From: Moniliella sp. 'wahieum'
Lineage: Eukaryota
Assembly (NCBI GenBank): GCA_003971905.1
Contig: RSEE01000052.1
Coordinates: 124,001-188,000 of the forward strand
Reading direction: 5' to 3'
Length of the DNA stretch: 64,000 nt
Part shown: positions 1,101 to 50,206 of the stretch, piece by piece
Layout of the letters: every line of letters starts with the position of its first letter
Numbering within the stretch: position 1 is the first letter of the stretch
The notes under the pieces: model-generated
What the model saw: the letters and a program-made list of their open reading frames with translations, nothing else
What the model was told of the DNA's origin: nothing
Database searches by the model: none
Position numbers and translations under genes: made by a program

Positions 1101-4100
1101 GTCACCGCGAAGGGAGACGCAATCGGTCTTAGTAGTGACGGGTGACGCGCAATCACATACAATACGCGTCCATGTTCAACGACGTTTTCTCAACATTTTC
1201 TCAATCTCCTGAAGAAACCTGGGAACCTGCGTATTAGGCCTGGGTTCCTGAGTGCCTGAGTCTCAGGCCCGAGGGCGTCTTCTTCAGCCCTTTCAGCCTT
1301 ATAAGCTTCAGAGCGCTCAGCCTTGTCAAGCTTCAGGCTTATATTCATTAATCATTCTTCAAGCTCTTCAATAAGCTTCAAAAAGCTTCACTAGTCACTA
1401 GTCACTAGCCACTAGCCACTAGCTTCACTAGCGTCATCGATCAACGTAATAGCAGGTTACCGGTTATGCTTGACTAATATATGCACCACGCGGTGCAGTC
1501 TGTGCACATCCAGCACATCCTCCTTCTCTGGAGTCCTCATGCACTCATGTATATACTCAGTACTCAGTCGAGTGCTATTATAAGTACTAATAATAATCGA
1601 TCAATCAAAACGGTTCTCTATTCTCACTTAATTTTTGTTTTACCAATCTCTTCGTGTGCCTTAAAACGTTAAGTCATGATGCATGAAGAAAAGACCGCGC
1701 GCTACCCCTGCTTCCCCTCGTCAAGGAGAGTCCGGCTCTTCCGGTTACTTCGTCACCAAAATACTCTTGACAAGTCAGTGACTAGTGACTAATGAACGGT
1801 GACCAGAGGACGCTAGTAAAGCTTAGCTGGAAGCTCGAAGCTCGAAGAGCTTGAGGCCAGAGGCTCAGGCCTGAGGCTAGCTTGAACCTATAATAGCTTG
1901 AAGTTTGAAGTCGCTGGTACTATATTGTTCGCTTCAGCTGTCACTCATGTCACATGCCATGTCACGCGTCATCACACGTAACAAGTACTCAGAATTATTG
2001 AGCTGAAGGCGCGGGGCCTGTTGGTGGGAATGCAGGGTCTAAGAAGACGGCCTAAGAATGACTTGCCCCGGGAGAATACCCTTGTGTCAGATTATTTGTA
2101 TGCATAGGCGCAGAGGCTCAGCCCTCCGCTCATGCCCACGATCACGTCGATCAATCACATCGATCACATGCACATACCATGCAGATGTATCATACATCAC
2201 GCGTCACGCGTCACGCCTCAGACTGAGGTCTCAGATCCTCCTGAGGCTCCCGGTCACCGGTCACCGTGACCTGACCGCCTGACCGTCAGATCTGAGATCT
2301 CAGAACCCAGAACTCAGATCTCAGACTGAGTGGTTTCCTCGTGTTGAACGTTCGTTGAACGTTGAACGTTGAACGTTGAGGAGGTTGACGCGCTTACGAG
2401 TGGGCTCCACTAGCTCCACTCCTTCCCCACAACACCGCTCCCTAAGGCCTAAGGCCTAAGGCCTAATCCTTGCCTGGAGTTAGCGGTATAAGTACCTCAA
2501 GCTCCACGCTTCAAAAAGAGCTTCAAGCTTCAAGCTTCATATAATTCAAACGTTCACGCCTCAATAAGCTTCAAGCTTCAACCTCGTTCTAGAGGCTTCT
2601 CCGTTCCAAAACGTTGTCCTGTGTTGGGACACTAACGCAGTGTGTCAGCGGCATAGTCGGACTCTGATGGCGCTCACAACCATCCACACGACAGCTAGCT
2701 CTTCTAGTTCCGCCCGGCGGAAGTCTGGAAGTCCGACTTGCCTCCTTCTCGAAGCTTCGGTAGTCTAGCTCAGTCTTCCCTCTCTTCCACTATCTCCTCC
2801 TCCTCTTCCTCTCCGCTACTTTCTCTGCTATCGATGACCAACAATCAATATTCAACGTTCAACCCCGTCACTTGTTTTCTGTCTCAGGCTGATAAAAGTT
2901 AAGCTTCATGCAGCTTTTCAGGCTTCAAAAAGCTTCGAGCTTCAAGGCAATCGGTAGGACTATAGAAGCCGGTAAGTGCTGAGCGCTGGGACAGAGTGAG
3001 CTTCGCCGCTGCTCAGCGCTCATTAACATTTCTCATTGCTCTGTTGCTGAGGCTTTGGGCCCGTTCGCGAAGCATTTTCTTATGATTTTGGCGGCCATGT
3101 TAGCGCTTAGCGCTACGACTTAGCGCTAAATAACCCGACGAGCGGAAAGTATTGATTGAGGATCGAGATGATCGATCATACGCCGAGTTGTATATATGAC
3201 GGGTATGATGCATAATGCATGACACGCATGATGTATGACGCATGGCGTGGTCAAAAGACTCTCCAGTGAAGGTATGAAACCGGATAATGGAGGGGAACGA
3301 GAGAGAGGCGAAGTGTCATGCCGGATTTCGTCATGATGGGGTAGAATACGGGAAGGGAGCACAACAAAAAAGGGGGGGAATAAACATATGGGGAAGGCGG
3401 CCACGAGCCAAAGTCGAGAAAATTGCTCCGAACAGGGGACGAAAATACCAGAGAAAAGAGTAGCACCACACACCTTTTTGGTGTCAGCTGACTAGGGACA
3501 AAACACAGCGAGAGATATATAAGAACGAGGCACCTGTTTAAGGACCACACAGTGAAGGGAACCTCACAGAGAGCTTCTATTTCCTCGGCCGGACCTGACA
3601 CCTATAGGGTCCACCCATAACACAAGAAGATCAGAGAAACGATCTACTTCTTTTACTTCTGCCACTGTGGCTGTGCAGGAAGGCGATGGATGTATCCATA
3701 AACAACAATGAAGAGCAAGACTCAGACTGTGAGACGCAGGATTATGTTGGGGATTTGGGCTCTGTTGGACGGCAGAAAAGTCGGCCCTGCTATAAAAGTG
3801 AATAATGGGGAGTTACGGAAGAGGAGTGCTGGGGAAGTGTAATGATAAGGTGCGAATGCTTGTTCGTATTAAGGTAATATGCAAAGGTGGGACGGAAAGA
3901 GGAACAAGAAGGAGATATGTATATGGCATGCCGTGTATCCATGATAGTTGGAAAGCTTTTTGCCATTTGGAGAAATTGCTGTTATTGGCAGTGGGCAGTC
4001 AGTCTATATATGACCTACAAGAAGGCCCGATGTTCTTCCCGTGGTGATAATGGACACTAAAATACAGAACACTCTTATGACAAAAAGCTTACACAAACAT

Positions 4101-4499
4101 ATTAGGGGGAAAAAACGGCAGGCTTTGCCTGACGTGGACGTTTTGTTGTTGGGGAGTATAGAGCCAGGGCCCCGCGAGTCATCTAAGGAGGCGATGAGGC
4201 GGGAAAAATAGCTATATAGCAGACAAAAGGACGCAGAATGGACTAGAAGAGTCAAGAGCTATACGAGAAAAAGACCTGGGAGAAGAGCTAACAGCGTCGA
4301 GAGTGGTCTGTCTTTTTGTTTTATACCAGCCTCAGTGCCTAGCTGCGAAACACAACAAGCCCCAAACATGGCCCCATGAAATGAGACAGTCCAGTAAGAT
4401 CTTTCCAACAGTGATGAGCTTTGCCCAACGGCCTTAATGGTGTAGCATCCTAACATTATGTCTTGGCAATGGGGGGGGGTAAATGAATTTTGCGCATGC

Positions 4500-5650
4500 A
4501 TTTTTGTGGTTTACTACCGAGTGGTGTCTTTGACGCCATCCACCGCCGCCTTGAGAAAATGATGATGCGTGTTCTCCCCCCTAATCAACAGATGTAGACG
4601 TCGCCTTCTGTGCACCACACCTTTCGGAACGCAACATTTTGGTCCCATTTCTCTCCCAGTCCCTCATGTTGTGATCCGCCTCCATCCCAGATCAGCCAAA
4701 CGCTTCTGTTCCCACCTCAATACCTAGTCCGAGAGTGTGATCTGCAGTGTATATGCTTACCTTTCCTCCCACGCCAGGGTTCCTCATCTTCCCTCATAAT
4801 AATTGGCGAGATATGATTGTCCTTCTGACCTCTTGGATGCACACCTCCCTCCAGTCTGTCAGAACTCGATCCATACGAAAGAAGGCGCCTATCTCACCTC
4901 ATGAAAGAGCATCCTCTTCCAACTCTCATCAACGATAACTAGTATGCCACTTGAAACATATCAGCGCATCAGCAGAGATGGCGAAGCTTTTTGTCTGAGA
5001 ACGGTACTGTCACATTTAGTAGGAAGTGCCTCTGAAAAAAGGATGCACCATCAAATTCATCAAAGTTGGACATATACTTCGCCCCAGATAGCGCGTCTTT
5101 TGTTCCCCGGCCACTATGCTCGTTCCCCACTCAGGTATTCAGAGCCTGAAGTGTTTCCTCTCCTCGGGTCAAAAAAGTCTTGTGATCCCACATCCTGCGG
5201 CCCACTTTTGCGTAGGTTTATTGCGGATGAGACCCCTCTGTGCCTTTGTCCAGGATTTCGGCTGTTGCGGAGAGAGGGGTGATGTCCAAATCTCCTTTTC
5301 CAAAGAATGATGATGTTGCCCAAGGACGGGGCCACCCCACCAAATGTGCCCTGTTACCACCTCACCCACTATAGACTCCGCTTGTCATGGGCGGGCTCCG
5401 GACTGGAGTCTCCGACCTAAAGTTCAGGGGTGCGTTCCCTGGGAGGAGGACAGGCCACTGACGGTCGATCATCGATCCCGAACACTACTGGCAAATCCGA
5501 ACGGAGATAGAGACGAGGTGAGGCCTCCTAGTTGGGGCGTCGGCTCGCGTGGCAAGGTTGTGTATGCACCGGAAAGAAAAGGACTATTCGGGTGCCTGTA
5601 GTACATAGTCCTGAAAGTGGTTGTGGCAGAGGAAGGTTATTGACACAGGC
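4500..5650 (-). mobile_element. Possible highly degenerate Copia-like pre-integrase/integrase relic
   Basis: Minus-strand peptide IILWKRRFGH resembles the LWHxRxGH pre-integrase motif. No intact ORF. Lies in a TE-rich block. Confidence 0.25.
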
Positions 5651-7101: not shown

Positions 7102-7953
7102 TGTTACGGGGCGCTCCGGTTATCTCCGGACGCTGAGCCCCGCATATCGTAGACATCTCAGCCCAACATGCGCCAGTTCGGTTAGACTAGCGAGAGAGAG
7201 CCAGTCGACACCTTATCCTTGGTGCGGATATCATCCGCGGCCCGTCATGGTCGCACGGCTTATCGGTACCATGCTTTGTGCCTATTGCGCCCAGTCTTGT
7301 CAGAACCCTTCCTGCTGCGCCCGACTACGCAGCGTCAGCGCCTTGGGAAGCAAGGGCTGTGCATTAGTCTTTACCTTTCTGGGAAGTGCCCCGCATTCTG
7401 TCTATACTGTCATGAGGCACTTGAGGCCTGGTTCCTTCTGCTGTATATAAGCAGCCATGTCTAAGGCTTGCTAGCTGTGGTCCTTGTCGACCATCCTGTC
7501 TATTACCGTTGGTCTCCCCGATTACCAGTTCCTCTCTCGCCCTTCCACCTTCTACCACCCTTACGCTTACGAATTTACGACTTACGTCGAGTGCACTGCA
7601 AGCCGCGGTTACTCTCATCAGTAGAGCTTGCTCTTCTTTAGGACTCTGTCTGTTCCGCCAGTGACAGCGTACCAAGTGTGGTAACGCTGCGAGGAACAGA
7701 GTAATTCCGGAGCTCCTGGACCCCTTCAGCTGGTCTAACGACCTACGTACACGGCTCCTACCTCGGAGGGTCTGGACTGCGGCCTTTGCACGCAGGCAGC
7801 CACCCAAACTAGAGGATCTCTCCCTAGCCTCTATACCCGCTCGGTTCAACCAGGATCTGGAGCAGGACCTAACGTACGAGCCACCGATTGATCTGTCCAA
7901 GGGTTATATCCCTAAACTACAGGGGGGGTCCCACCTCGGGACCCCCCATGACA
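7102..7953. mobile_element. Solo LTR, family A (~850 bp)
   Basis: TGTTACGGGG...CCCCCATGACA inverted termini, near-TSD agaac/ggaac, internal TATATAA near 7444. Homologous to 28506-29544. Confidence 0.85.
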
Positions 7954-8887
7954 GGAACCCGCCGGACGAGGAACGGAACCCGGGCGGAATCACCCGGGAG
8001 CCCGTGCCCGTCCGCACACGATGATGCGCGCGTACCCGCGTAAGCCAACGACTAGTAGCCTTCTCCTGTAGCCCTTGTCCTGCTTCCTACCACCAAGCCT
8101 ATCTCTCGCCCGCAATCGATCGCCTACGCTACTGTCCTAAACGCTTCAGCATCCATTGCGGTCTCCATAGCCGAGTGGACGAGGACGTCTACACGGTGCG
8201 GGGCGTCTCGCCCCAACACAAAAGGCAATATGGCAGTCATTTGAATGCCTTATGGGCCTTAGGCCCCTTGGCCTTAAACCCGTTTTTATATACTGCTGGT
8301 TTTTCCGGATAGGTTACCAGTTACCAGTTACCCCGGTCACCGGTCAGCCACCCCATTCCTATGCCGGCGAGTAGTAGGCCGATGGCACTTCTTGGCACAG
8401 AAGTTTATTCAACGTCAGATTAATATACTAACCTTATGACGTCTTTCGATGATCTTGACGATCGATGATCGGGCATATAGGACTCCCTGCTCAGGCGCTC
8501 AGGCGCTCAGGCCTCCGGCCCTGAAACCGGCAGGCCAGCCTTCGGGAGTTGGCTTGGGATTAGCGCTTAGCCTAAGCGCTTAGCTGATTTCAACTACGGA
8601 GGAGGTAAGGCCAGCAATCCCCAGGTTAATTCCGATTATGCGCGTTGCGTGTCTTTTACGCCCGTAGTTGGTGCATTTGTTCCAGGCCCTCCTCAGCAAC
8701 ATTCGAGATGCCGAGCTCGTCCGAGCGCATTGAGCCGCTGAACGCTGAACACTCGGCCCACGAATGCCTTGCTGTAGTTGCTGGCGATACCGGTCGTGAT
8801 ACGTCTGAGTATAAAGCAAACGCACCCAGACTCTCCGGTAGGTGCAGTGATTCTGCCCACCCCGTCCTTTTCGTTTCTTCCATCATC

Positions 8888-10187: not shown

Positions 10188-10422
10188 TGTTGAGGCCTTC
10201 GGGTGGCTCATGCTTTGGCCAATATGTCCTTCAGTTCCTCTCAGGCCTGGGACTGGGAGTCCGTTGTTTTCTCTCCCTTGTTTTTCTTGTTACGCAGCTT
10301 AGCCCCTGGTGGCGACAAGCTGCTTGTTGTTCCTCTGTAGGCGTTGCCGGTTGGGCTTAGACACCACCACCACCAATGAGATTGCATCACCGTCGAGGAT
10401 CATCAGGACTCCAGGTTCATCA
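10188..10422. mobile_element. Solo LTR, family B (235 bp)
   Basis: TGTTGA...TCATCA termini, near-TSD cagta/aagta. Reverse-complement homolog at 29014-29246. Confidence 0.8.
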
Positions 10423-10898
10423 AAGTAGTCTAGCATCATCAAGAGCAAGGACTGGTGGGTAATATATTGTTGGCTTAAAGGCCACACCCGCTATATATAG
10501 CCCTCAGACACCCTGCAAGTTGGTTACAACTCCTGTTGACTCGTTGCTGGCCGAGGCGCCGAGCACACCCTCACTGTTCACGTGCCCCAGGTCATCGGGG
10601 GGTCTGATCCACCCCAGCAGCCGCTAGTTTGGAAGATGTAAGCTCGAGCGTGCGAGTTTATAATAGTAGTATGTAGCCATTACCATTGGCTGACCCTAAT
10701 AGTATGCATGCGTGTGTGGTGTGGCCCAGCACGGCCACGCCAGTAGGGAACCCGGGGTGTAGAAAGAGGGGAACCGGAATGGTACAATAGAGAAACGAGG
10801 GACCAACAAGTAACATTACCGTTTCGCCAAATCATCGTCCTTATCCTTACTGGGGTGATGGGTAGTTCCGTGCCCAGCCACTTAACCTGGCCAGGCCG

Positions 10899-17824: not shown

Positions 17825-20800
17825 TGCGCCGATCAAAAGAAGGTGAGGGGCGGGGGAGGGAGGGCAAGGGGGCGGGAGACGTGGTGGAGGCGGTGACGTG
17901 GGCGTGTTGCTGTCTTCTCAGATGCCAACTCGTACTCAACGGCGGGCCTGGGTGGCGAGGGGGCAGGTTTGCGCAGCCTGGTCGCTGCAATTTGAGACGC
18001 AACGTATATTCAACGCTGAGCGCGCTGAAGCTTGAACAACATTCACCGGCACCAGCGAGTCACTTCTTCTAAGATCTAAGCGCTCTCTGAGCGGGCAGGG
18101 CGGGGGGGCGGAGGCCTGGGGGGGTGGTACAGGGCAGTACTCCGGGCGCTGCGCTGTGCATACGCAGCTGGTGCCGCATCGGCGCCCAGTACCCAGTGCC
18201 AGTGTACCAGTGTTGATAATGGCGTGTGACATGTGATGGGAAAACGTCCTTCACACTGGCGCCATCCCAAGCTTGATGATCGATGATCGATGATGGGGAC
18301 CTGTGACACGTGTGACATGTGAGCGGCGGAGCGCTGAGCAACTGAGCACCTCAGCCGGACGATCTGCAATCACCCGCCGATCGGCAGGGCCATAGTGCAT
18401 AGTGCATGGTGCATGCATGATGTGCATCATGCGAGCTGCGTTGGAACACTCTTCCCAACAAATACGATGGCCCGGCTGGAGCCTACACGACCTGACTAGT
18501 GACTGGTGCTGTCGCAGGCTATCGCTCGCCAGTCGCTCGTGTCCCCGTGCAGCTTGAAGCTGGGCCTCGGCGGCTCACTTGGCAGTGGCCGGCCAGGAGC
18601 TGCACCAGGCGGCCACCCCCCGTCACGCGATTGGGACCATGCGTCCGCGTCATGCATCATGCATCATGCGTCATGCATTGGCTATGCCGGGCGCCGTAGC
18701 TGCAAGCAACGGCCACTGGCCACAGTGTCGCAGTGTTAGCTTCAAGCTCTAAGAGCTTTAAGCTTCAAGTTTCAGCGAGTTGGACCCTGGTTGACCGGTT
18801 GACCGCGTCGTCTGCCTACCAAGCCAAGCACCCGGATCAGGCCGGTTCGACCGGTCCGCCGGTCAGTTGGTCTCGGTCACTCGGTCACTCGGTCACCGGG
18901 CCACCGTCCGCGTCACTGCATCATCTTACCCCGTCGGCGTGTTGGCCAGCTGGTCGAGTAGGACCGGCAACAGAACCCACGGAGTAGGCCAACAGCAAAA
19001 CAGGCAACAAGAACTTCAAGCGCCGATGCATGGCTTGCATTTTCGTACGTTGCTCGATTTGCTTCAGAGGTCGCTTCCTCAGGCCTCAGGGCCTCAGGGG
19101 CCTCAGGGCAGTCATGTCACATTGTCACACCGGATTCACAATTCCGCCGGCAACCCGTCCCCCCCCCCAACAGTAGGCCCACTGAATATTCGTCACAGAA
19201 GCTTGAAGCCCAAAAAGGCACAACCGCCTCCCGCCCACTCCACCAGCCGGTACCTACTACCTGTACACAGCCAGAGGGGCGTGCCAGTTGGTTGCTTAAT
19301 CCTAAAGCCGGAGAAGTGCTTTAATCCTATACTAAAGAGGGTGTCGAAGGCGCGGGTGAAGAAGTGGCGCGGCCATTGAACTGATGGCTGAGCTCCGGGC
19401 CGTCATCTCCAAGAGGACGTGTGGGCATCATGAAGTTCACCGCGCGTATACAGCTAGCTTTTGTTCCACTGTGCGAGACAGCCTCCGGCTGCGTGGGGGT
19501 AAAGAAGCGGTTGAACGCGTCCGCACAGACGATGGATTTACTTGCCGCATAGACGGCACATACACCAACTCTCCCTACTAATGGCCGACATACCAATAGA
19601 CCTGCTGATTGACAACTCTTACTCGCTCCGGAACGGGCGTTTTATGTGTAGAGACGGTCAGGACGGGAAGCCCAAAAAGGGAGACAGAGTATGGGACCTA
19701 GGTCTTTCCAAGCAAATCAGGCAAACGTGTGGGTCACAACTCCCCTGCCTTCGCGCTGCGTCTCGGTGCTTCACAGGAGACGCTCTCCCTTGGAAGAAGA
19801 GAAGTATAGCGGAGTGGAGAATGACTGGCATCAATAGCATGCAACGGCCAAGAACTTCTGCCGAAAGAGAATAAAAAGGTCACGATGACGATAGATCAAG
19901 GACAACCAAATGTTGGAGGAGAAAAGTGGGACATGATAGTCATTTGTGGTCCAAAATATAGAACCAAGCAGAGATCCATATTGTCAAGAGAACAAAAGAT
20001 TACAACTCCCAACAAACCCGAGATAGTCACGACACATATAGCACCCCCAAACAACGAGAGAAGTATCGATGCCCGTAGAAAAAGGGCCTCTGTGAGCTCA
20101 TTGTGACCGTGCTGTTGTTTTGGCTGCTGCGGAGCATAAAACCGTGCCCCAGACAATCTGGGTAGTCTCTCTATCGTCCCAGTCCTGAGCAGTTGTGGTG
20201 TTGACCTCCTTCAAAGGTGCGCACGGAGGCACACGGCCAATTTTGACCATTTGTGTATGTTATTGCTACAGTCTTCTTCGGACCTCTGAAAGTGGTGTCG
20301 GGTCACCGCTGTGTTGAGCTCTTAGCGCCAGCATACGATTCTTAGAAATGGCTAGGGGAGGGCTTGTAGGGGGAAGTGTGGGGTATAGGGAAAAGAGGGG
20401 GATTCAGTGGGTGCGGCCATATATATAAAGAGGCTGCGAAGGACTGACGCCCGATCCGGATGACCGCTTAGAAGGGGGTATATAAAACGATAATGATTGC
20501 GTACTTGGACCAGAGTCTGCGTTAACTGAATGAAAAGGGAGAGGGGAGCTGTAGGATGGTAGGGAGTCTAGAGAGAAGAGTATCAGAGCTAACATTTATA
20601 TATAGCGTCCGAGGTCACCTATCCCTTTCTCAAAATGATCCGTGGTTCACACCCATTATCGGGCTCTTCCCCCTATGCTCTGCCCCTTACGGGATGCTCT
20701 CCTGAAAGTAGTAGCATCGTCTATTGTAAGACCGGAGGAACCCAAGGGGTTGGGTGAAGAACCTCTGGAAGTGTAGAGCAATGCAATCGCGATGGTCGTG

Positions 20801-28366: not shown

Positions 28367-28458
28367 GGTGGCGCTACCAAGTAACATAAGCAAGATGAGC
28401 GAGTCGGTTTAGGCGTAGCGTTCCTTGTCGCAGCCTAAAGCTCTGTCAATGATATGGA
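28367..28458 (+). mobile_element. Short 3'-terminal fragment of the CRE-type retrotransposon (diverged subfamily)
   Basis: ggcgctaccaagtaac...aagctctgtcaatgatatg motif, flanked by direct repeat agcagt (28361-28366, 28459-28464). Confidence 0.7.
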
Positions 28459-28505
28459 AGCAGTATAGAGGCGATAGAGAGACCTCTATAATAGAGGTTG
28501 GGTGT

Positions 28506-29544
28506 TGTTACGGGGGTATCTCCGGACGCTGAGCCCCGCATGCCGTAGACACCTCAGGCCAACACGTGTCAGTCCCGTTAGTCTAGCGAGAGAGAGCAGT
28601 CGACACCTTCCATCATCCGCTGCGCCCCATGGTCGCATGGGCTCATCGGCACGATGCTTTATGTCCATTGCGTCCAGTCTTGGCAGAACCATTCCTGCTG
28701 TGCCCGACTACTCAGCGTCAGCGCCTTGGAGAGCACGGGCTGTGCATTAGTCTTTACCTCTCTGGAAAGTGCCCCGCAAGTTCTGTCTACTATACCTGTC
28801 ATGAGGCACTTGAGCCTGGTTCCTTCTGCTGCATATAAGCAGCCAACATGTCTAAGGCTTGCTACTAACTGTGGCCTTTGTCGACCATCCTGTCTTTGGT
28901 CTCCCCGACTCCGTTCCTCTCTTGCTCTTCCACCTTCTACCGCCCCTACACTTACGCATTTACGACTTACGTCGAGTACGCTGCAAGCTGCGGTTACTCT
29001 CATCAGTAGCGCTTGATGAGACCTCTGGAGTCCTGATGGTCCTCGAGGGGTGATGCAATCGCATTAGTGGTGGTGGTGGTCTAAGCCAACCAGAAACGCC
29101 TGCAGAGGAACAACAAGCAGCGAGTTGCCACAGGGGCTAAGCTGCGGAACAGGGAAAAACAAGAGAGAGAAAACAACGGAACTCCCAGGCCTGAGGAGGA
29201 ACTGAAGGGACATTGGCCAAAGCACGAGCCACCCGATGGCTCAACAGCGCTTGCTCTTCTTTAGGACTCTGTCTGTTCCCGCATACTACAAGATACCAAG
29301 TGTGGTAACGCTGCGAGGAACAAAGTAACTTCGGAGCTCCTGGATCTCTTGAGCTGGTCTAACGACCTACGTAGACGGCTCCTGCACTAGAGGTCTTCTC
29401 GCCTCTACACCCGCTCGGTTCAACCAGGATCTGGAGCAGGACTAACGTACGAGACACCGATTGGCCTAACTGTCAAGGGTTTATAACGTTTATACCCCAA
29501 ACTATACAGGTGGGTCTCAACCTCGGGACCCCCCCCCCATGACA
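28506..29544. mobile_element. Solo LTR, family A, with nested family-B LTR
   Basis: TGTTACGGGG...CCCCATGACA termini, perfect 5-bp TSD ggtgt/ggtgt. Homologous to 7102-7953. Confidence 0.9.
29014..29246. mobile_element. Solo LTR, family B, nested in the family A LTR
   Basis: TGATGAG...CTCAACA termini, perfect TSD gcgct (29009-29013, 29247-29251). Absent from the 7102 copy of family A. Confidence 0.88.
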
Positions 29545-29753
29545 GGTGTGGCTGCCTGCCCAGTGGCTCACACCTCTGAGGACGGAGCAACTTATGCGCA
29601 GGTAGCGTCAAGAGTTGAAGAGTCTGCGTGCTCTGGGGGGTAACGTGTCTTAACCATACACTCTTCATCGCCGTGGCAAATCAGACGGAGTCCTAATTGA
29701 AGAGCAACAGCGCTAGTATATAATACTTGGAGTAACCGCGGCTTTTGGGGCGA

Positions 29754-30092
29754 TCTCCAAGTAATAAAATCGGTTGGTTGGCCTGCATTTTTACATCAGC
29801 TGCCCGTGACACGTTCCCAGCCACCGCAGCCAGAGTATCGGTGATATTATTTGCCCTCTCCAGCGTGGAAGGGTTCCAGCGTGGAACGGTAGCGACGCGG
29901 TGGAACGGTGGCTAAGGTCGCGAAGGGACCGGTGGCTAAGGTGGCGATGGTGGGCCGGGGAACGGTGGCTAAGGTGGCGACGGGGGAACGGTGGCTAAGG
30001 TGGCGAAGGGGAAACGGTGGCTAAGTGGCGACGACGCAGCACCATGCTGGGGCGAAGCCCCAGCCGACCGGGCGTAGGCCCGTGGCCTCTCG
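29754..30092 (+). mobile_element. Non-autonomous Helitron with internal minisatellite
   Basis: A|TC start, subterminal hairpin cgggc-gtag-gcccg, CTCG|T end (CTAG variant), tandem ~24-bp units ggaacggtggctaaggtggcga. Homologous to 33943-34159. Confidence 0.7.
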
Positions 30093-32188: not shown

Positions 32189-33559
32189 TCATATTCTATT
32201 CCCCTACCTCATTTGGCAACACGCGCTATATCTAGCTTGGAAGCAATGGCGAGCACCAGAGTGCGTGATCTGCGGCCAGGACTCCCTGATTTCCTGTTTG
32301 GTGCCAACAAAAACAGCACAGGTCGGATGAGCAGCAGGTCGACGGTTGTGCAGCATTTCTTTGTCTTTACTGCGGCCTTAATAAGCTCCATAAATATGGT
32401 GATACGACTACAGTATAATGCATCCTGCGCGGTAGACTACTTTTGGTTTTTTGTCTCTGATGGTTTTTGAGAGAATGTGGTCTCTATACTATGCTATAAT
32501 AGCTTGCAGTTGGTGTCTATGTTACTGACAGTACTACTGTTACGCCGACTACCCTGTATCATGTGCACAGGTGAAGACGGGCTGGTAAGGCCAGCGGAAC
32601 TATGTGCGCACTTCGCCTTTTCCGAATCCCGTCCCCAAGTTGCTTATGGGGTCAGATTCGATCTGATCCGACCTCAGCTGAGGCCTGTCCGCTACCCAAC
32701 AATAGAGCACGCTCCCAGATTATTCAACTCAACCCTATCTTGGCTGGCAAGCCCGCCAGCAAATTACCATAGTCTACGTATCCTCTCGACAATAGTCGCC
32801 TCTTCGCGGTGGCCACCACAATTGTCAGTATTTCCTTTGCGACGATAATCGTACCGTTCTGTTTACTATACCTTTATAGGATTCCCATGCCACAACCGCG
32901 CTCCCTGTTTTCTCTGTCCTCCTCTATGCTGTTTTCTCTTTAGTCCTTGTCTGTTAGCAAAGGTTCGCCTGTTTCCCCCCCACGATCCATTCGCGTCTCC
33001 TTCTATCTCCTCGCCAATTGATCAACCCAGTACAGACAATTCTTCCTCTTCTTAGTTGCTTCTCCGCTTCCCATCCTCGTCCTCCAGCTCCCGTCTTCAG
33101 CACTCCCGTCCCTGAGGCAACCCACAGTTCGCGTGTGCCTTCCAGGTGCCACTCGAAGCCCAGCTCAGTTCAGCCGCGAGCGATCCCGTTTCCAGTCACG
33201 CCTCCCCAGTCCCAGTCCTGAGGCTTGATACAGCTCCAACAGGGTTTGTCCTCCACTTCCCATTCCCGTCCCTGAGCTCGAAGGCTTCAGGCACGCTACT
33301 GCCGCCCAAGCCGTTGCTACGCAGCCTTGTCAACTTGCGGCCGCCTCTGCAATACGCCGATAGAGAGGCCTCTCCTTTTTGTCCCTAGCCCCTCTCGGAC
33401 CCATCAATCAGCCCAAACGCGTAACTACCGGGAGTCAACCATAGGACCTCCAAGATATTGTACCTCTTAACCTCCGTGACACACAACACAGTGTGGAAAC
33501 CCCGATTCAAATACGTGCAGCCTCTCCGCGAAGACATCATCACCACATTGAGTTGTTGA

Positions 33560-33712
33560 CTCCACCCACTATCTATTCTGTAACCATATCATTGACAGAG
33601 CTTAAGGCTGGGACAAAGAAACGCTGAGCCTAAACCGACCCGTTCATCGATCATCCGGCGTCTGTTGCTTGTTAGCGCCAACCCCGTTTAAGGAGCCAGG
33701 GTAATCGCCAGG
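33560..33712 (-). mobile_element. Inverted 3'-terminal fragment of CRE-type retrotransposon
   Basis: atcattgacagagcttaaggctgggaca...atcgccagga is the reverse complement of the conserved 3' motif. Confidence 0.75.
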
Positions 33713-33721
33713 AGATTATAT

Positions 33722-33942
33722 CTCGCTCGGATGTCTACCACGTTCATCCGTGTCCACACGCGTTTCCCAGGGTACGGGACCGGATGGCGACCACGGAGGG
33801 TCCTGGTATCCTGGCGATCCCCCTGGTTCCTTAATCGTGGTGGCGCTTCCAAGTAACCCCCGCAAGATGAACGGTTCGTTTATAGACGTAGCGTTCCCCC
33901 TGTCCAGCTCTAAGCTCTGTCAATGAAATGGATGCAAAGAGA
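33722..33942 (+). mobile_element. 3' UTR fragment of CRE-type retrotransposon
   Basis: Aligns closely with 43415-43640. Confidence 0.85.
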
Positions 33943-34159
33943 TCCCCTTATTACTTTACGTCATGCTTACCTATTGTTTGCGCCAGGCGGAATTCCCAGC
34001 CCACCCGCCGCGCGTTCAGTCATGCGTGTGAGTGATGAAATTCGGCCTCTCCAGCGTGGAACGGTGACCAAGGTGGCGACGGTGGAACGATGGAACGGTG
34101 GTTGCCGTGGCGACGGTGGCCCAGCACCCAACCGGGCCGTAGGCCCGCTGGTCCCCTAG
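33943..34159 (+). mobile_element. Non-autonomous Helitron
   Basis: A|TC start, hairpin cgggcc-gta-ggcccg at 34133-34147, then CTAG|T at 34156-34160, the canonical Helitron 3' end. Confidence 0.78.
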
Positions 34160-34229: not shown

Positions 34230-36500
34230 AGTAACTAGCAAACTAGTGACTAGTGACTAGTGACTAGTGACTAGGACTGCCTCTACATGTTCGCCCACAT
34301 CAACAGTCTCAGGAAATCCTAGCTTCGGCAACCCGCGTTATTATTCGCTCACAGTCTGTATGTCATTCAGGGTGGTGTGCGCCCAGCATGCCCTCTATAT
34401 GATGAAGAGTATGAGCCGTCGGGTTAGGCTGAGGCCTGACTCAGGCTTCAGCTTCAACACCTGAAGCCTGAAATTTGAAAGGGGACACGCTCGATTAAGT
34501 GGGGTCATGTGGGTCAATTTCCGACACGCTCAAAAGTTTGTGTCGCATGCCACACATGTGATCTACGGCGACCGGCGACCCCGTATGTGTGCCTGAGGAA
34601 GGGGTTGTCGGGAACTAATGCATGTGCGCCGATGCAACTCATGTAACGTAACCAACCGACTGTAAATATGCACGAACATATCATTAAATCAAATTAATCA
34701 TTGTTCTTCCACCGGAGCATCCCCATTTCAGATCTGACAGCTTTACAAGCATGAGATGCATGATTATAGTATGAAGAGCCACACAAAAGTCACCGGTCAC
34801 CGAGTGCGAGCTCTCTCTGGGTATTATCAGGACTTCACACATCATGTGCATCATCATCATCACCGGTCACCAGTGGTTACTACCTTTGCTTGTACGTGAA
34901 TCCGTCAATCGCGACCGCCTCTCCGACGTTCCGCACGTCAAGCTTCAAGCTTCAAGTCTGCAGCACCGTTAATAAGCGACTGTGCTGGTTTTTGGTTACC
35001 GGCGGTTAATACCCGTTTGACAAGCTAGTACTACTCTACTTGACGGTAACGCCCGGTAACGTGTACTACTTGCATGCTATACCAACAGTAGATGGCATCC
35101 ATATCATCGACCATGCATCATGCATCATGCATTATGCCAATGATGTGTGTTGTTTGACAATATCGCATTGTACCTGTCACACATGTCACTCACTCGTTTT
35201 ATCAACGTGTCGGAGATGTCGTGCCTCCCTCTGTCCCTCGAAAGTAAGAAGCGCCCGTTCAAACGTTCATGACGTTCATGCATCATGATGCATGATATGT
35301 GACATGATGACAGGGACCGGGGGTTACCGGTTACTCTCAATACTTTGGTACTCGATACTCGTAGTACTCAGCCTGAGTACTCACATCAGTACTCAGTGAG
35401 TTCCGAATACTTGATACTCAGTCTGAGTGCTCAAAGTACCCAACGTAACGTTCAACGCGCTCAACGACGTCAACATGCTCACAGCGTTTATCATTTAATG
35501 TTCAACGTTGAAGTTCAACGTTCAACCGCAGAGTCCGGTCGAAAGCTACACTATTACTCGAGTCAATCTATATGTAGTCAGTATACTTACGAGTCACTCT
35601 AGTCACTAGTCAGTGCTCAGTACAAGCTCCAAGTTCTTCAACAAGCTTCAAGTTCTCCAAGCTTCAAGCTCTTCAAGCTTCAGTACTCGGTACCAATATC
35701 AGTGCGGAGGCGCTGAGTACTAAGATATAGTATGAACGTTGAACGTGAACTTGCATACTTTGTAAGTACGCTGTTCTGTTGCTCATCAGTGCTCACTTAG
35801 CCTGAAGGGCCTGAAGCTTGAAGCTTGAAGCTTGAAGCATAATGCATGAATGGGTACTCGATACTCGGTGGAAGCTGGAAGACAATATCATATTAGGGTT
35901 ATGGTGCTTGGACCGTATAGTACAGGATCTATCTAGAACTATATTAAACCCTCAAAGACGTGCACAGTGTGCAAGTCACATCTGGGAGCATATGAGCGTG
36001 AGCGCTGCATGTGACACACATGTGGGCAATGTGAGCCATGTGAGCAATGTGAACGCTGAGCGCGCGCTGCGGCTGAGCCCGCTGCACAGTCACTTGTCAC
36101 TAGTCCGTAATCACCACAGTGATCACTATAGTCACTACAGCCACAACCATTTTGGTTGTGATTGAGTGGGTATTATGATTGTGGGTATTCTATTGATGGC
36201 CTTGCGCGTTCCAATGGAGCGCTGCGTGCATCAACGTGAGCTAGGCGCCGAAGCGCGAAGCTTTGAAGTGACTAGTGACTAGTGACTACCTTGGAACACA
36301 AGTGCTTCAAGCTTGAAGCCGTGCTGGGCGCTTCTGCGGCCTTTGCTTCCTAGCTGAGGCCCTGAGGCCTGAGAACCAGGCGCTCAGGCCTCAGGGGGAA
36401 ACAAGGTTGCGCTTGGTCACGCTCCTCTTAGAGGGACTGTGACATGTGAACGTTGAACACCGAACATCGGCAGTGCACCTGAGGCCTTGAGGCTTGACGC
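34230..36500. repeat. Dense field of 7-bp-period palindromic micro-repeats
   Basis: (ACTAGTG)n ~34243-34272, (AAGCTTC)n ~34940, (ATGCATC)n ~35113, AGTACTC units ~35348-35395, AACGTTC/G ~35447-35525, (AAGCTTG)n ~35814-35838. Confidence 0.85.
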
Positions 36501-36622
36501 GGATAGTGATTGACACTTCGGTGACTTTTCACAATCAGTGTATGTGTAGCCACCCGGTCGAGTCCTTTCGAGCCCAGTGTGTGTGGCAACTAGATTCCGC
36601 CTCAAGCTTCAAGAGTGGAACG

Positions 36623-41597: not shown

Positions 41598-41884
41598 TGT
41601 TGACGATGATCCTCCGGCTCTTAGTCGGTAATAGACCAGGCTCGCCTCGGTTCCATCGGCTTCCACACGCTGCGGGTATCGTCCCAGCGAGTGTTGGGTC
41701 TGCCCCCCTGATGTGCCCTGCATCGCTTCCTGTATATCTCACTTGCTCTGTGCCTAGTCCGGCCTCCTTTTATATATTAGATGCCTCTTGCGCCCACATA
41801 CCCAACTCTGGCTCCAATCCATCACCTTCTCCTCATCATTCTGCGCGCTGAGACTCAGCGCTCAACCGGCTCCCTAGGCCAACA
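41598..41884. mobile_element. Solo LTR, family C
   Basis: TGTTG...CAACA inverted termini, degenerate TSD gatgc/ggtgt. Homologous to 31956-32188. Confidence 0.72.
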
Positions 41885-43042
41885 GGTGTCACATGTCACA
41901 TGTCATGCATGTCACCGGTCACCAGCGGCGACACAACCGAATGAGAAAACCCAATTATTTTTGCCTTTTTGTGCGACAGCGGGGTGCACCGCGAGTAGTA
42001 CTTAGTAGCCGTGCATATATAGATGCGGCCGCGGTTGCCCGTCTAGGTACGTAGCGGGCGCTGAATAAATCATCCCCCAAGAAGGCCCAAGTGGGGTGAC
42101 CGGTGAACGTGTGAACGCAGCGTTACATCCGTACGAAGACAACTAATACTAATATTGATTGCAGCGCGCACAAGACGCACTCCACATCAGTTGTTTTACT
42201 GCGCTTACTGCACCGAGGGAACAGCATCGTAAGCGTAACCCTTGAAGCTTGAAGCATGCGGTGTGGAGCAAAGCTTCTTATAACATTCGCCGCTATAGCG
42301 GCCCTCAAGTGATGCAACAGTGCGGGTATACGCGGTCCAATACAAAGAGAAGTGACTAGTGACTAGTAGTGACGCGTGACGACTAGTGGTCAGTGTGACA
42401 CGAGTGACTGCAGTGACTACTAGTAGTACTTCACTAGTACTTAGTATAGTTAGTGGCTAGTGATGCATGATGCATGATGTATGATGCATGTTGATAGATG
42501 GAATAGCTTCAAGCTTCAAGGATATCGATCGATTGATCGATCGATCATCGATCATCTCCGGCACAATTGCTAAATGTTAGCTTTGACGCGTGACGAGTGT
42601 GTAATAAAAGTACTTTGCCGAGGTCTTCTGGCCCCCAAACCGGATCCCTCCCACATATTCTCTCCCTTGTTTCTCTGTTATATATTGTTTCTGTTATATA
42701 GGTCTGGACAGAAATCATATGGGGGTGCGTTTCGGGAGAAGAGAGATATGATGCAATGCATGATGGGTTTTTCATCCATCAACATAATCTGTTGTATGGT
42801 GTCGTTAATACTGCGAGAAGAGTACTGACTGCCACAGAGTAAGCCCTCTCTTCAGGCGGTGCGTGAGGCGTGAGGCGTGAGGCGTGCGGTGTGGTCAGCA
42901 CAGGTGCCTGCTCTGCATTCTTTTCTCCAACACACACCAACACATTAGTTAACAGAACAGATTCAGCCATATCTACTGGTACATCATTGCATCACCACAT
43001 CTCTTTGTACGCCTGCCAAAATGGCATTGTGTGTACGAAAGG

Positions 43043-44343: not shown

Positions 44344-47126
44344 AAGAGACAGCTGGCAGAGAGAGGGATCTGAGCCAAAGAGATGTGCTTGATGCGGGAA
44401 GTCTCTGATCCTCAGTCAAGCCTATAGCTTTTTGAACAGAAGCGAGGCTGTCAACCTCTCGTCTACCCGCGCCTTTTTAGTTACCCCCGAACCAATCATC
44501 CACCAGCGCTGCATTGTGGAACTGTCCGTCCGGAAGCGCCTCCGACCAGGAGCCGACAGAATTGAGCCCCCGTCAACAACTCCACAACATGTTAGCTATT
44601 GCCGCCGCCGCTGTCACCGAGCCAGCCACACCCCTACCATCGCGCCAACGCGCTGACGGTAGATTCTTTTCATTTTCTTTTACAGTGCGACCGACTTTGG
44701 AGAAAGTTGCAGGTAGAACTGGGGCAAGGGACAACGTTTAATTGTAACGACGCCACGGTACCTAGATGACAGGATTTTCGGACAAAAATATTGGGCAATC
44801 ACGGTGGCCATGCAGCGTATGAGATTTTGGATGACGACAGTTTTCGGGCCTTGTCATCATTCTGCATGATACGTGTGTTGAACACGAGCGGGACCCCAAT
44901 TCGAGAGGAGTGGCGCGTGGTCCTTAGTTCTCGCGTGGGAGATGATGGTTGTTCACGGTTGTGCCTTCGGGAAAGGGCCGCGATCTGTGAGGCATGACAT
45001 ATGCCTAAAAGATTAATGGTATTACCATTCTATTAATGGCGGTACTCTATACTCTTCAGACCAAAACAAACTTATTAATAACCATTGCCTGGTTCGCTTC
45101 ATTTAGTTGGAGGACGAGGGGAATGATGAGAGATGTGATGACCGAGATGGACGCTTTCTTCTGTACGAAGTTTCGACGGATTCTATAGGGGAGACGAGAA
45201 TCCCCGTCGGGCTAAGAAGGACGATAACTTTGAAGACAATAAGATCATGAGAGCCTGTGGAGCCCGTGCCTATTCGGATGATAGGATGCGGCTGCCTCCT
45301 TTGTACCAGTATATTGCGCCCCACGCGTGTGTTGAGAGGCCATAATCAACAAAGCCAATGCCTGTCTTATCATCACTTTCGTAACCCCCCCCAACGGATG
45401 CGAGCACGATGCCAGCCGCCAAAGCTTCGAGCTCAGCCTGTGAGCGACAAGCAGGTTCAGGTTGTGTGGTCACCAGCTCCGTACTCCATGTTGCTACTTG
45501 CACCAAGCGCAAATGTGGTCTGATGCTACCGCTTGGGCACAACTTGGCTAGCACCCGCACTCATAATCCCATCCAAAAGTTATTTTTTGGCGCGTTTTAC
45601 ACGAAACTGTTCGGGAACCCATCCTCACAGGCCTCATGTTCCGATGTACTGCGCTTCATCCCGGACACCGACATTCTCAACCAGTGGGTTCGGGAGGACG
45701 AGGACAAGATGCGTTTGGGGAGGAAGGACATCATAGTATACGTACGGATTTTACCGAGTAGTGATGGGACCAGGAGTGCCCTGGGGATCAGGAATGAAGC
45801 TTGAAGCTTGAAGGCGGGCTACACCTTGAGGGAGAGTCCTGAATTCGGAGGTGCAATGCAAAGATACCAGCCATATTTTACAGTGACGCGGAGGGGTCAT
45901 ACAATGTCACACGGGAGCCACACATGTTACTAGCTTCCAAGTATTTTCGCGAGACGGTAACGTTTTTTGGTAGCTAATAAAAGGTTTTAGGCCGTTAGGC
46001 GTTATGACCCTGAGGCCCGAGGGTCTGAGAAGTAGCTGGTAACCGGTATAACTGGTAATCGAAAACGGCAACTGCCTAATAAGGCCAGCAACTGGTATAT
46101 ATATAACCTGTGATAACTCGATAACCCTAGGTGGCTTGTAGGGCATATGCGACTTGTAACGTTGGCATAGTGGTGTGTGATTCTGTGGTACGGGGTGGCA
46201 ACAGCGAATCCGGTGGGCGCAGCGATCTTCCAGCAGCGCAGCAGCTTTGGACGAGGCGGGGGGGGGGCGGGGCTTGTGGGGCTAACATGTAACAGCAGGC
46301 CGATGATTAAGGAGGCGCTGAGAGGTGACCTCACCGGTCAGCTGGGGCCTGAGAATCTGAGAGCGCTGAGGCGCTGAGGCGCGGAGACGCTCAAATCCAG
46401 CATGCTCATGGCGTGCTGTTGAGCCTCAGAGCCTCAATGCTGCTGACGAGCCGCAGACCTCTCGCTTTGTGTGGAACACGCTATGGCGATGATCGATGAG
46501 CGATGAGCGATCGATGAGCGCTGTCTGTGAGCCATGCGACATGCGACATGCGAGCGGACAATTATCGTCTTATCACCACTCTCCTCTGGGATTGTCGATT
46601 CCAGGGGGATCGCGGCGCGTCGGAGAAATGACGATGAAGCTTGAAGCTTGAAGTTAACGTTGACGTGTCGAGGTGTAACCATGTAACTTTTAACCATTGC
46701 GCAAACACACCTAGCGCAGTTTGCAGAGCGAGCTCCCTATAAACTGCTCCGCCAAAGGCCAATAAGGCCGGTGGTTGGGGGCTTGAAATTCAGTTTGATG
46801 TTGAATATTGAATCCTCACCGGCCGGTCACCTGAGGCCTAGAGGCCTCAGCCTGATGATCGATGAGTTGATGATGAGATCACCGAGATCATCCTGGTAGG
46901 GACTGGTTCGTTGCTACTTTTGCGATAGTTACTAGTTACTAGTTACGACTGAGCTCTATAACTACGAGCACACTCGCGAACTCAGTTGAACGTTGTGTAC
47001 TCCGTTACAACGCAACACGACTGAGCAGTGCGTGTGTGCGACCTGCTAGAGCTCGGTTGGTCGGGGTGTTCAACGTTCAGTGGTATGTTCCTCGGCAACA
47101 GATCACGCTGCCCTCCGTGATGAGGT

Positions 47127-48741: not shown

Positions 48742-50206
48742 TCTACGTATTCTTCCATTGGCAAGCGCTTCAAGCTCCTACAGGCTCTTACACTCAGTTT
48801 TTTTTTGTCGTGTCTTCCCTCTTCCGTCGTCACATATCACCCTCTCAGATCTCAGATCTCAGATCTCACCTTCTCTAGCTGCTGCACACCCTAATCACAG
48901 CGCAATCAAGACCTGTCTAGTGCAAACAATCACTACTGCACGTTGCACTTACACCCGTCCTTTAGTGCATACAATCCTTACCCTCTCGTGCCTTTCCATC
49001 GACCATCCTTGGAACCCTCACATGTCACAGTTTCTCACTATACTACTCTCGTCGCGCTCCTTCCTAATCACTCCGATTCGCGTCCTAGGGCCTCAACGTA
49101 CAAAACAATCACAACGTATTAACCCCCGTTTCCCGTTTCCCCTTTCATGCCTGTGCCACATGCGTTTCCTCCACACTCCACTCACCGTCCTGCAAGTTCT
49201 TTTTTTTTTCCCGTCGGTCCCCATGGCCGCCCTTGTGTTCGGCCACAGACACACTGCCTCTCATGCCTTTTGATCCTCTGTATTCCATCTTTGGCTGGGA
49301 ACTCTCCAGCATGTTCTTGTCTGAGATCTGTTCTTTTTGTTCTGTGCTTCCTGTCGTCACTAAGATCTTCCCATCTTGTCGATCGTCGGTCGTGAATATT
49401 GAATCTGTAGGTTGAATGTCGAGCAAACACCGCCATTTACCTCGTCCCCCCCCCCCCCCCCCCGCCCACACACACATCAGACCTGTCTCAGGGCTTTGGC
49501 ACCTCTCTTTTGATGCTTGAATTTACAACTCTCCAGTATAGATAACCATCTGGCGACGCGATTCTAGTCGACTTGGACTGCCAAACTGGCGATGCTCACA
49601 CAGCGGAACATGTAGAGATCCGGAGCTGGAACCCGCGAACACGGGGCATACCAGGCGTGCATAATGCCTCCATGAGGCCTGAGGGCCTGAGGCCAGCCTG
49701 AGGTCAATTTGCAGATACGAAGGGCAGGCAAATTCCGTCCCACACTGCGACGCCATGCATCGTGGAGTCAGTCGGTCGTAGCGGGGGGCCAAAAACCAAA
49801 GGAATGGAAACAAGGCCACTAGGGTGGAGCCAAAAAGCAGAAATAATTGCGCCGACGTGGGTGGTGTGGGTGCATATCCTATGGGCCACCAGGGCAGTCT
49901 ATGTCCCGCTGGGGCCCCCAGTTGGGCGATGGCCTCCCTGGCGGCAACGCCTCTTCATCTGAGCATCAAGCTTCAGCTTCGAGTACACAGCCGGGCGGCC
50001 TCAAGGTAAGCGGATGCTCCGGACACGGATGCTATGTCGTGGGCATACGATGGGTGGATTGCCAACCCAAGACGCCGACACCGAGTCCCTTCCATCCTGC
50101 CTGGACTCTCCTGGCTCCACCCGCCAACGCCGGAGCAGCGGGACAAAGTGGATTCGAACGTGGCGAAGCTGACTCTTCCCTGTGTGTTGGCAGGAACCGA
50201 TTCGCA

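Follow-up and report, generated by a model that had tools for sequence, protein, structure and literature searches.

How do tandem arrays of palindromic heptamers, built to one form but on many different cores, arise in the non-coding DNA of a fungus? The question is raised by a 64,000-nucleotide stretch of Moniliella sp. 'wahieum' (GenBank assembly GCA_003971905.1, contig RSEE01000052.1, positions 124,001 to 188,000 of the forward strand), here called the window and numbered from its first letter, in which an earlier note had described short arrays with a unit of A-x-y-y'-x'-T plus one spacer base (primes mark complementary bases). Our analysis confirmed that this period-7 palindromic array pattern is real. 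Moreover, we propose, with a probability of about 0.5, that the arrays are the scars left by a break with a 7-bp stagger around a central T-N-A (N being any base), which would have been joined with hairpin-derived palindromic nucleotides, repeatedly and at the same places. At the T-N-A sites concerned, seven bases are gained, five of them copying TNAxy directly and two being complementary to xy, and these last two create the palindrome A-x-y-y'-x'-T out of whatever flanks the site.

Palindromic heptamers and the elementary 12-mer

Relative to second-order Markov simulations of the window, which supplied the expected counts for periodic arrays, perfect arrays of at least two copies were in large excess window-wide at period 7 (59 vs 3.4 expected), with further excesses at period 8 (9 vs 1.0) and period 9 (5 vs 0.2). 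Of the 59 period-7 arrays, 35 had a unit made up of a 6-bp palindrome and one further base, where random heptamers would give 10.4%, and all 35 of these units were of the type ANNNNT, with 12 different palindromes among them. Counted as hexamers, ANNNNT palindromes numbered 410 vs 224 expected, and those starting with C, G, and T were close to expectation (251/267, 227/283, and 220/207, observed/expected). The check proposed in the earlier note, namely whether the N4 of T[CG]A-N4-T[CG]A is self-complementary more often than chance allows, came out strongly positive. Here, 187 such motifs were found vs 69.7 expected, with a self-complementary N4 in 110 of the 187 (5.3 of 69.7 expected), and the non-palindromic N4 amounted to 77 vs ~64 expected. 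The use of at least 12 of the 16 possible ANNNNT palindromes, also claimed there, was borne out as well, with 15 of the 16 cores occurring at the level of the 12-mer described below and TATA being absent.

As for the spacer, pairs carrying the same base were enriched (TCA..TCA, 73 vs 21.4 expected; TGA..TGA, 86 vs 15.8), and mixed pairs stayed at expectation (TCA..TGA, 15 vs 16.6; TGA..TCA, 13 vs 15.9). Among the 140 decamers with a palindromic core (a decamer being T-N-A, a 4-bp palindrome, and T-N-A), 112 had the same spacer on both sides and 15, a minor class, had complementary ones. TCA and TGA are indeed what joins the units, as had been noticed, but an array keeps to one spacer base and mixtures of the two are not enriched. 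Since TCA..TGA mixtures are unenriched and the spacer base is copied along, the units are direct copies and not fold-backs. Chains with one, two, and three cores numbered 89, 18, and 5, respectively (10.4 single-core chains expected), and just 3 of the 23 longer chains mix cores. In comparison with the dinucleotides beside free T[CG]A sites, the cores AGCT, TCGA, and CCGG were high, GCGC was low (2 vs 7.7 expected), and so were the AT-only cores AATT, ATAT, TATA, and TTAA (5 vs 14.0).

The elementary object behind these arrays is an asymmetric 12-mer, TNAxy followed by y'x' and a second TNAxy. When this form was counted for all 64 possible triplets, 101 occurrences were found vs 4.9 expected, and 72 of the 101 began with T-N-A (TGA 33, TCA 32, TTA 4, and TAA 3). 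The middle base was C or G in 65 of the T-N-A 12-mers and A or T in 7, amounting to a ~3–4 fold preference per site. For the general form TNA-u-rc(u)-TNA, with rc the reverse complement and N the same on both sides, enrichment was confined to a u of 2 bases (112 vs 3.0 expected); the other lengths of u (0, 1, 3, and 4) were at expectation, as were ANT, CNG, and GNC when used as outer pairs. Because the enrichment is limited to T-N-A at a 2-base distance, we are dealing with a sequence requirement and not with mere geometry. The earlier reading of the rule as 'geometric, not sequence-specific' was therefore right about the 4-bp core, which is free, being taken over from the local flank, but not about T-N-A and the exact 2-base distance, both of which are strict. 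In fact, T-N-A re-emerged from a search blind to it, in which a word W was followed by a gap and by W again, with the gap being the reverse complement of the end of W. With W of five bases and a gap of two, 35 of 105 cases conformed (~4.9 of 39 expected), and in 27 of these 35 the word was TNAxy (12 TCA, 11 TGA, 2 TAA, and 2 TTA). Isolated 12-mers showed no flanking consensus.

The ends of the arrays follow the same rule. We sorted the maximal perfect period-7 runs with an ANNNNT unit by length and phase, and runs of length 10 and 11 were spread evenly over the seven phases. Among runs of length 12, however, 28 of 35 span from T to y or are its mirror image, and 0 have one extra base on each side. 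That phase was kept in 5/5 runs of length 19 and in 2/2 of length 26, so that array lengths are given by 5+7n.

To describe the joints, we took pq as the two bases left of the first TNA and xy as the two bases right of the second, with the insert between a same-N pair being required to equal a prefix of xyy'x' plus a suffix of q'p'pq. At period 7, this held for 108 of the 189 same-N pairs, 28 of which fitted as xyy'x' only, 20 as q'p'pq only, and 36, lying inside arrays, every way. Plain xy+pq without palindromic bases was rare (4 pairs fitting only that way and 4 more being ambiguous), by which a simple fill-in of a staggered cut was rejected as the main route. Fitting pairs were also found at period 8 (16/70, ~0.15 expected) and period 9 (9/100, 0.05 expected), followed by 1/59 at period 10 and 0/49 at period 11. 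The joints are thus heterogeneous with a dominant product (108 inserts of 4 bases, 16 of 5, 9 of 6, 1 of 7, and 0 of 8), as in a hairpin-type excision footprint, and two further marks of such a footprint are present, these being a target duplication of fixed length on either side of the joint and flank-templated palindromic (P) nucleotides, the core being a flank dinucleotide plus its reverse complement. More conspicuously, the period-9 class reads pqTNAxy, two palindromic bases, and pqTNAxy again, and so shows a complete 7-bp duplication symmetric about N. In the 6 full-duplication cases inspected, the maximal repeat was exactly 7, and the main class retains 7+5 bases. It is invariably the end 2 bases from T-N-A, and in no case the one at T-N-A, from which the palindromic bases derive, and a symmetric target of 7 bp is thereby favoured over an asymmetric one of 5 bp. 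Together with the period-9 class, this side preference ruled out a 5-bp (Transib-like) duplication, and 7 bp is preferred. A Harbinger-like 3-bp duplication with dinucleotides from the transposon end was likewise set aside, as the core comes from the flank instead. Longer inverted copies make up a minor class with the same centre as the 12-mer events, since perfect palindromes with arms of at least 5 bases and TNA at positions 3–5 from the centre numbered 15 vs 2.9 expected. Odd inserts are few (5 bases, 8 vs 2.5 expected; 3 bases, 11 vs 9.9).

One such event can be viewed before and after the fact. Five copies of a decayed dispersed repeat overlap at a site where 4 of the 5 read ..GCAAGATGA(A/G)CG.., and the copy at 33572-33680 reads, on the minus strand, ..GCCGGATGA-TCGATGA-ACGG... 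In this copy, the filled site (33644..33655 of the + strand) is, in minus-strand reading, GA-TGA, TC, and GA-TGA, followed by AC. A sister copy has the empty site, a single GATGA, at 28394..28398 (+ strand), and a single GATGA is also found in further sister copies at 33866-33870, 43559-43563, and 57770-57774. Between the anchors CAAGYAAC and GAACGG (GAGCGA in the copy at 28369-28469), there are 18 bases in the filled copy and 9, 10, 11, and 11 in the others, and the BLAST alignment opened a 7-base gap at the filled site. The change is hence one from GA-TGA-AC to GA-TGA-TC-GA-TGA-AC, with the new palindrome TCGA made from the flanking GA, and as the sister copies still carry GATGA, the flank existed before the insertion. 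This case is based on the longer alignments and the anchor counts, with short re-alignments having placed the gaps uncleanly. A second candidate, GTTTATA-AC-GTTTATA at 29479..29494 (+ strand), has the whole 7 bp around TTA in duplicate, its two copies separated by 2 palindromic bases. This 9-bp insertion, which is consistent with the same kind of event, is absent from a paralogue near 7902-7908, in a noisy alignment of 71% identity with other small indels.

The dispersed repeat family itself has copies at 1-486 (inverted), 43043-43524, 28369-28469, 33571-33943, 43415-43644, and 57759-57853, the first two of which are 96.7% alike. The copy at 33571-33943 (373 bp) is self-inverted and resembles a miniature inverted-repeat transposable element (MITE), and in several short fragments the conserved end ...GCTCTGTCAATGA.ATG stands alone. 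We considered this family, with its inverted ends (33571-33943), as the agent, but these ends lack nnTNAnn duplications. The paralogue of the second candidate belongs to another set of paralogous segments (7118-7955 / 28514-29546 and 10188-10423, inverted, / 29013-29246; ~1 kb, 71-86% identity), probably the relics of another mobile element, over which no Pfam domain was found in the scanned open reading frames (ORFs). Also, two GC-rich tandem repeats with periods of 26 and 33 (GGAACGGTGGCTAAGGTGGCGACG-like; 29899-30033 and 34055-34127), which lie 4 kb apart, flank the repeat-rich stretch of 28.4-34 kb.

A break-and-repair reading and its rivals

These observations can be brought together as follows. 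A break with a 7-bp stagger around the N of pqTNAxy would duplicate the target, much as the insertion of a cut-and-paste transposon does. On removal, both flanks would be sealed as hairpins with their tips 2 bases from T-N-A, and host enzymes would open these hairpins 2 bases off the tip to leave the 4-base self-complementary overhangs xyy'x' and q'p'pq on duplexes that would end exactly at T-N-A. End joining that retained one overhang and dropped the other would then give the exact 12-mer or its mirror image. If one of the hairpins were opened at its tip, the period-9 form would result, deeper opening would produce inverted copies, and the less frequent joints with 1 or 2 more bases, or with a longer inverted copy, would account for periods 8 and 9 and for the long palindromes. 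Repetition at either T-N-A of the product yields a 5+7n array with one core, and events at neighbouring sites with other flanks yield other cores. As the second site in the product is a perfect pseudo-palindrome, further events lengthen the array with the same core, and the observed chains (single-core ones dominant, few mixed) agree with this. The agent may be an enzyme of the transposase type that duplicates a 7-bp target and whose hairpins would be 'even', like those of RAG, Transib, and MULE; it would belong either to a mobile element that revisits certain intergenic regions or to a domesticated enzyme. That the signature is one of cut-and-paste transposon excision has, in our estimation, an even chance of being correct, and we judge the odds to be similarly balanced for the conclusion that the arrays have built up from one insertion event recurring at T-N-A sites and are neither ordinary slippage microsatellites nor binding sites. 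Slippage probably adds copies to arrays that already exist.

Of the two origins that the earlier note had entertained, a fold-back or template-switch process of synthesis or repair survives in part. A repair process is what we propose, and a hairpin step best explains the 2 palindromic bases, but pure fold-back copying is unsupported because the complementary spacers (TCA..TGA) that it predicts are unenriched. One rival is a replication or repair polymerase that stalls 2 bases past T-N-A, snaps back to copy 2 bases of its own product, and re-primes at the T, with neither a transposase nor a double-strand break. Such a process, although unlikely in our view, would account for the very high density of arrays and for a window without a transposon, and the 12-mer product and the empty/filled pair are silent on the enzyme. 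We know, however, of no polymerase process tied to T-N-A at a fixed 2-base distance, and a snap-back of 2 bases has essentially zero pairing energy. Moreover, snap-back copying does not predict the period-9 class with its symmetric 7-bp duplication (9 vs 0.05) or a joint spectrum of the end-joining type, and both of these are what the staggered break with hairpin opening leads us to expect.

Less probable still is that the arrays are ordinary microsatellites in which palindromic heptamers fold on the nascent strand and so expand best by slippage. Some arrays do fold well, as with (ACTAGTG)x4.7 at −6.8 kcal/mol and (CGTTGAA)x3.9 at −6.6 kcal/mol, both of which beat all 200 shuffles. Mutated, non-palindromic units such as (CACTAGC)x3 and (GCGTGAG)x3.7 have been copied, and the shortage of AT-only cores noted above would also be in keeping with folding. 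Yet 2 of the 4 folded arrays were no better than their shuffles, and the 12-mers by themselves do not form stable hairpins (−0.3 and −1.0 kcal/mol), so that fold-assisted slippage cannot seed them or build the first 12-mer from the single TNAxy of an empty site. Slippage also leaves unexplained the excess of single-core chains (89 vs 10.4), the ends phase-locked at 5+7n, and the restriction to ANNNNT when CNNNNG and GNNNNC would fold at least as well. For comparison, we used 120 metagenome loci (306,716 bases) chosen for a TCA(AGCTTCA)x3 array, and 0 of the 120 had at least 3 decamers with other cores in the flanks. These control loci contained 8 other-core 12-mers (2.6 per 100 kb) vs 111 (173 per 100 kb) in the window, and among their 147 other perfect period-7 arrays, merely 8 had palindromic units and 1 had an ANNNNT unit. 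Heptamer arrays as such are thus seldom palindromic, and the absence of the pattern from the control loci makes this grammar a property of the present genome or lineage, not of heptamer repeats generally. The earlier judgement that ordinary slippage is inadequate is upheld by the phase-locked ends, the constraint to T-N-A plus palindrome, and the empty site with its single TNAxy.

More remote is the second origin suggested earlier, a factor that reads TSA-N4-TSA (S being C or G), here in the form of binding sites kept by selection for a dimeric transcription or chromatin factor recognising T-S-A at 7-bp spacing in promoters. Arrays do lie in some intergenic blocks beside gene starts and are absent from others rich in T-S-A, and T-N-A is strictly required. 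A reader of this kind, though, would leave 4 of every 7 bases without specificity, as 15 of 16 cores are used and T-N-A alone is constant, and a symmetric one should accept TCA beside TGA, a pair that is unenriched. The chromatin-factor version is unsupported, as the cores vary and the spacer obeys a direct-copy rule. The asymmetry of the 12-mer and the variable, end-joining-like joints are marks of mutation, one event took place in a decayed repeat copy, and isolated 12-mers are without flanking consensus. Finally, an assembly or amplification artefact is barely conceivable, since the arrays measure 12-33 bases, far below read length, come in many kinds within unique surroundings, and follow a strict internal rule. 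They also vary from one old paralogous copy to another and avoid ORFs, with 61 of 87 separate arrays falling in the 30% of the window that has no open frame of at least 100 codons.

Several points weigh against the scar reading that we prefer. All counts come from one assembled 64-kb window, and the paralogue evidence comprises one clean case. Neither scan of ORFs (13, and then 70 of the 157 stop-to-stop ORFs with 110 aa or more) turned up a transposase domain, and a search of the 64 kb for inverted ends flanked by a 7-bp nnTNAnn duplication yielded no element, all 16 candidates having proved to be array artefacts. As many as 81 of the 189 period-7 same-N pairs fit no predicted joint where chance would give 38, which leaves a share of the excess either decayed or unexplained. 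Arrays of non-palindromic units occur too, namely (CACTAGC)x3, (GCGTGAG)x3.7, and (CATGCGA)x3, and because hairpins cannot copy such units, a second process, slippage or plain duplication, is needed. The under-use of AT-only cores also counts against it. Furthermore, the palindromes are even where odd ones are predicted for hAT elements, by which the best studied fungal candidates are disfavoured. The filling of ORF-free blocks is uneven, with 5.7-10.8 arrays per kb at 1130-3128, 32846-35835, and 41849-42866, but zero arrays at 3602-4904 and 43498-45384 despite 39 and 67 T[CG]A sites, respectively. Chromatin-dependent targeting, a difference in age, or unrecognised genes are possible causes of the array-free blocks. 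Lastly, the 76 arrays of T[CG]A type in the window lie mostly inside six clusters totalling 9,050 bases, in which merely 325 unused T[CG]A sites are left, and this density is extreme for cycles of insertion and excision.

Arrays, clusters, and genes in the window

The eight arrays that the earlier note had named are all present where it had placed them, and all are given here for the + strand. The first, (TCACTAG)x3 at 1388-1408, lies within 1388..1423 and is continued by the mutated unit (CACTAGC), a non-palindromic variant that has been copied as such, x3. There follow (TCACGCG)x2.9 with a CGCG core (2197..2216), (CCGGTCA)x2.4 with a CCGG core (2250..2266), and an imperfect TCAGATC array with mixed TCA/TGA spacers (2286..2325; 5.7 copies with 81% matches by Tandem Repeats Finder, TRF), inside which is a perfect 14-bp palindrome (2291-2304). 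Next are (CGTTGAA)x3.9, equivalent to TGA(ACGT TGA)x3 (2353..2379), and (CCTAAGG)x3.7, equivalent to TAA(GGCC TAA)x3 (2441..2466) and among the few arrays with an A/T spacer. The last two are (AGCTTCA)x3 (2519..2539), its AGCT core being the commonest in the window, and an imperfect TTAGCGC array with a T spacer (3100..3127).

These arrays are covered by the main cluster (1326..3213, 37 decamers), which sits almost wholly within the ORF-free block 1130-3128 and includes 20 separate arrays there, or 10 per kb. The largest cluster in extent (34247..36602, 35 decamers) contains (ACTAGTG)x4.7 at 34242-34274 and (TGAAGCT)x3.9 at 35812-35838. Another has 14 decamers (41770..42584), and the ORF-free block 41849-42866 has 11 arrays. 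Two clusters of 11 decamers each are found at 18026..19079, adjoining the 5' side of a minus-strand lipase gene and including the period-8 relatives CTCGGTCA and CCTCAGGG, and at 46283..47070, upstream of a cyclin gene. The cluster at 48845..49966 has 7 decamers and (TCTCAGA)x3.7 at 48843-48868. The picture of intergenic DNA packed with arrays therefore fits some blocks (6–11 per kb), though others are without any. Period-8 arrays are located at 8489-8512 (GCTCAGGC), 18872-18896 (CTCGGTCA), 19077-19109 (CCTCAGGG), and 46357-46391 (CTGAGGCG); all four carry TCA or TGA, and the scar model accounts for most of them if the insert has 5 bases.

In other respects, the window is ordinary fungal nuclear DNA, with a GC content of 0.48-0.64 and with housekeeping genes that have introns, as judged from Pfam matches on open frames. 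The scan of 13 ORFs matched Rieske/UCR_TM, a PX-associated protein (PXB, DUF3818), and a LIP lipase, and the wider scan matched ADH_N_2, CTNNBL, RRM_1, cyclin, 14-3-3, palmitoyl-protein thioesterase, and an Exo_endo_phos protein. Protein searches returned 4 weak hits for the DUF3818 exon and bacterial LIP clusters only for the lipase exon, so that it is the gene content that marks the window as fungal. Additionally, a 22-C run (49446-49467) and a 22-G run (60986-61007) lie 11.5 kb apart as mutual reverse complements, and their flanks are partly complementary too.

Significance and relation to known systems

What the arrays might mean for the genome can be put forward tentatively. It is possible, though we rate it well short of even, that they record promoter-aimed break and repair by a domesticated hairpin-forming transposase, or by an extremely active element with a 7-bp duplication that keeps coming back to the same regions, a process which writes 6-bp palindromes at about one in five of the T-S-A sites of certain intergenic blocks. 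If true, this process would be the dominant source of insertions in those blocks, and much of the non-coding sequence in this fungus would have been written by one enzyme-specific insertion process. It would act as a continuous generator of symmetric motifs (ACGT, CATG, CCGG, TCGA, and others) that could be recruited as regulatory sites, and would offer a new, slippage-free route from single sites to tandem repeats and palindromes. The arrays would also amount to a natural archive of hairpin repair in a fungus, with hundreds of events from which the target, the stagger, and the position of hairpin opening could be read base by base, and they would provide a handle for finding the responsible nuclease. 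In such genomes, mutation scars would dominate motif-discovery and microsatellite analyses, and the extent to which promoters are shaped by transposons that visit without leaving an element would become testable. We found no description of arrays of this kind in the literature searched, nor in that literature anything like the heptamer arrays of Ustilago that the earlier note had mentioned.

Among known systems, micro- and minisatellites made by slippage also consist of short head-to-tail copies in non-coding DNA, some with mutated units propagated, but here T-N-A is combined with a self-complementary tetramer, the ends are phase-locked, and single cores dominate. PIF/Harbinger elements make a 3-bp duplication, TWA or TNA with A or T as the middle base, and the canonical footprint of Tc1/Sleeping Beauty is TAC(A/T)GTA. 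With these, our arrays share T-N-A direct repeats around a short symmetric insert and a 7-base pseudo-palindromic scar. In contrast, 5-7 bp and not 3 are duplicated here, the middle base is preferentially C or G, and the 4 inserted bases are derived from the flank. A PIF/Harbinger footprint was accordingly rejected, given the 5-7 bp repeat and the C or G in 65 of the 72 T-N-A 12-mers. Bacteria likewise have intergenic heptamers, such as the TAACTGA repeats of the Beggiatoaceae (PMC4679880). Like our arrays, these and the short tandemly repeated repetitive (STRR) sequences of cyanobacteria are intergenic, of period 7, and present as many arrays per genome. They differ in being prokaryotic and in having one fixed unit per family without interchangeable palindromic cores, and no relation is implied.

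Turning to fungal transposons, the target duplication of the hAT superfamily is 8 bp, although Abr1 of Agaricus bisporus has 7-bp duplications, and Kyakuja elements (KDZ) have CA..TG termini and a KDZ transposase. Basidiomycete transposons with 7-bp target duplications include hAT7 of the Pucciniales (rusts) and Kyakuja of the Agaricomycotina (mushrooms) (PMC12730594), and another study mentions, in Agaricus, an element of hAT type that is related to ABR1 (PMC10051438). Both hAT7 and Kyakuja are fungal and have the 7-bp duplication that we propose here, though no such transposase was found in the scanned ORFs of the window. Within hAT, the proposed duplication would fit hAT7 alone, a likeness of length only. 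The same likeness, again of length only, extends to Kyakuja, for which no KDZ domain was present in the scanned ORFs. The hAT superfamily, hAT7 included, is disfavoured nonetheless, as odd palindromes would be expected and the inserts are of an even 4 bases (112 vs 3.0 expected).

The closest resemblance is to excision footprints of the hairpin type (Ac/Ds, Hermes, Transib, and MULE) and to the P nucleotides of V(D)J joints. In these, as here, the duplicated target stands on both sides and the joint bases are the reverse complement of the adjoining flank. Moreover, hairpin-type footprints share with our arrays one dominant product with variants 1-2 bases longer or shorter and an opening a couple of bases off the tip. 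In one published account, hAT, Transib, MULE, and RAG form hairpins on the flanking DNA, followed by host opening and end-joining footprints (PMC5499845). For Ac/Ds in Candida albicans, insertions of P nucleotides, at most 3 bases long, and two main products are reported, and the palindromes have an odd length, with the complement of the base adjoining the element at their centre (PMC5873905). Unlike Ac/Ds, the present case has even palindromes, and unlike hairpin-type footprints in general, it has a putative 7-bp target centred on T-N-A, no donor element in the window, and scars iterated into tandem arrays that fill whole intergenic blocks. The ingredients, namely target duplication, flank hairpins, and P nucleotides, are known already. 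What appears to be new is their iteration into a genome 'grammar', the 7-bp target centred on T-N-A, and the large share of some intergenic regions that such scars make up.

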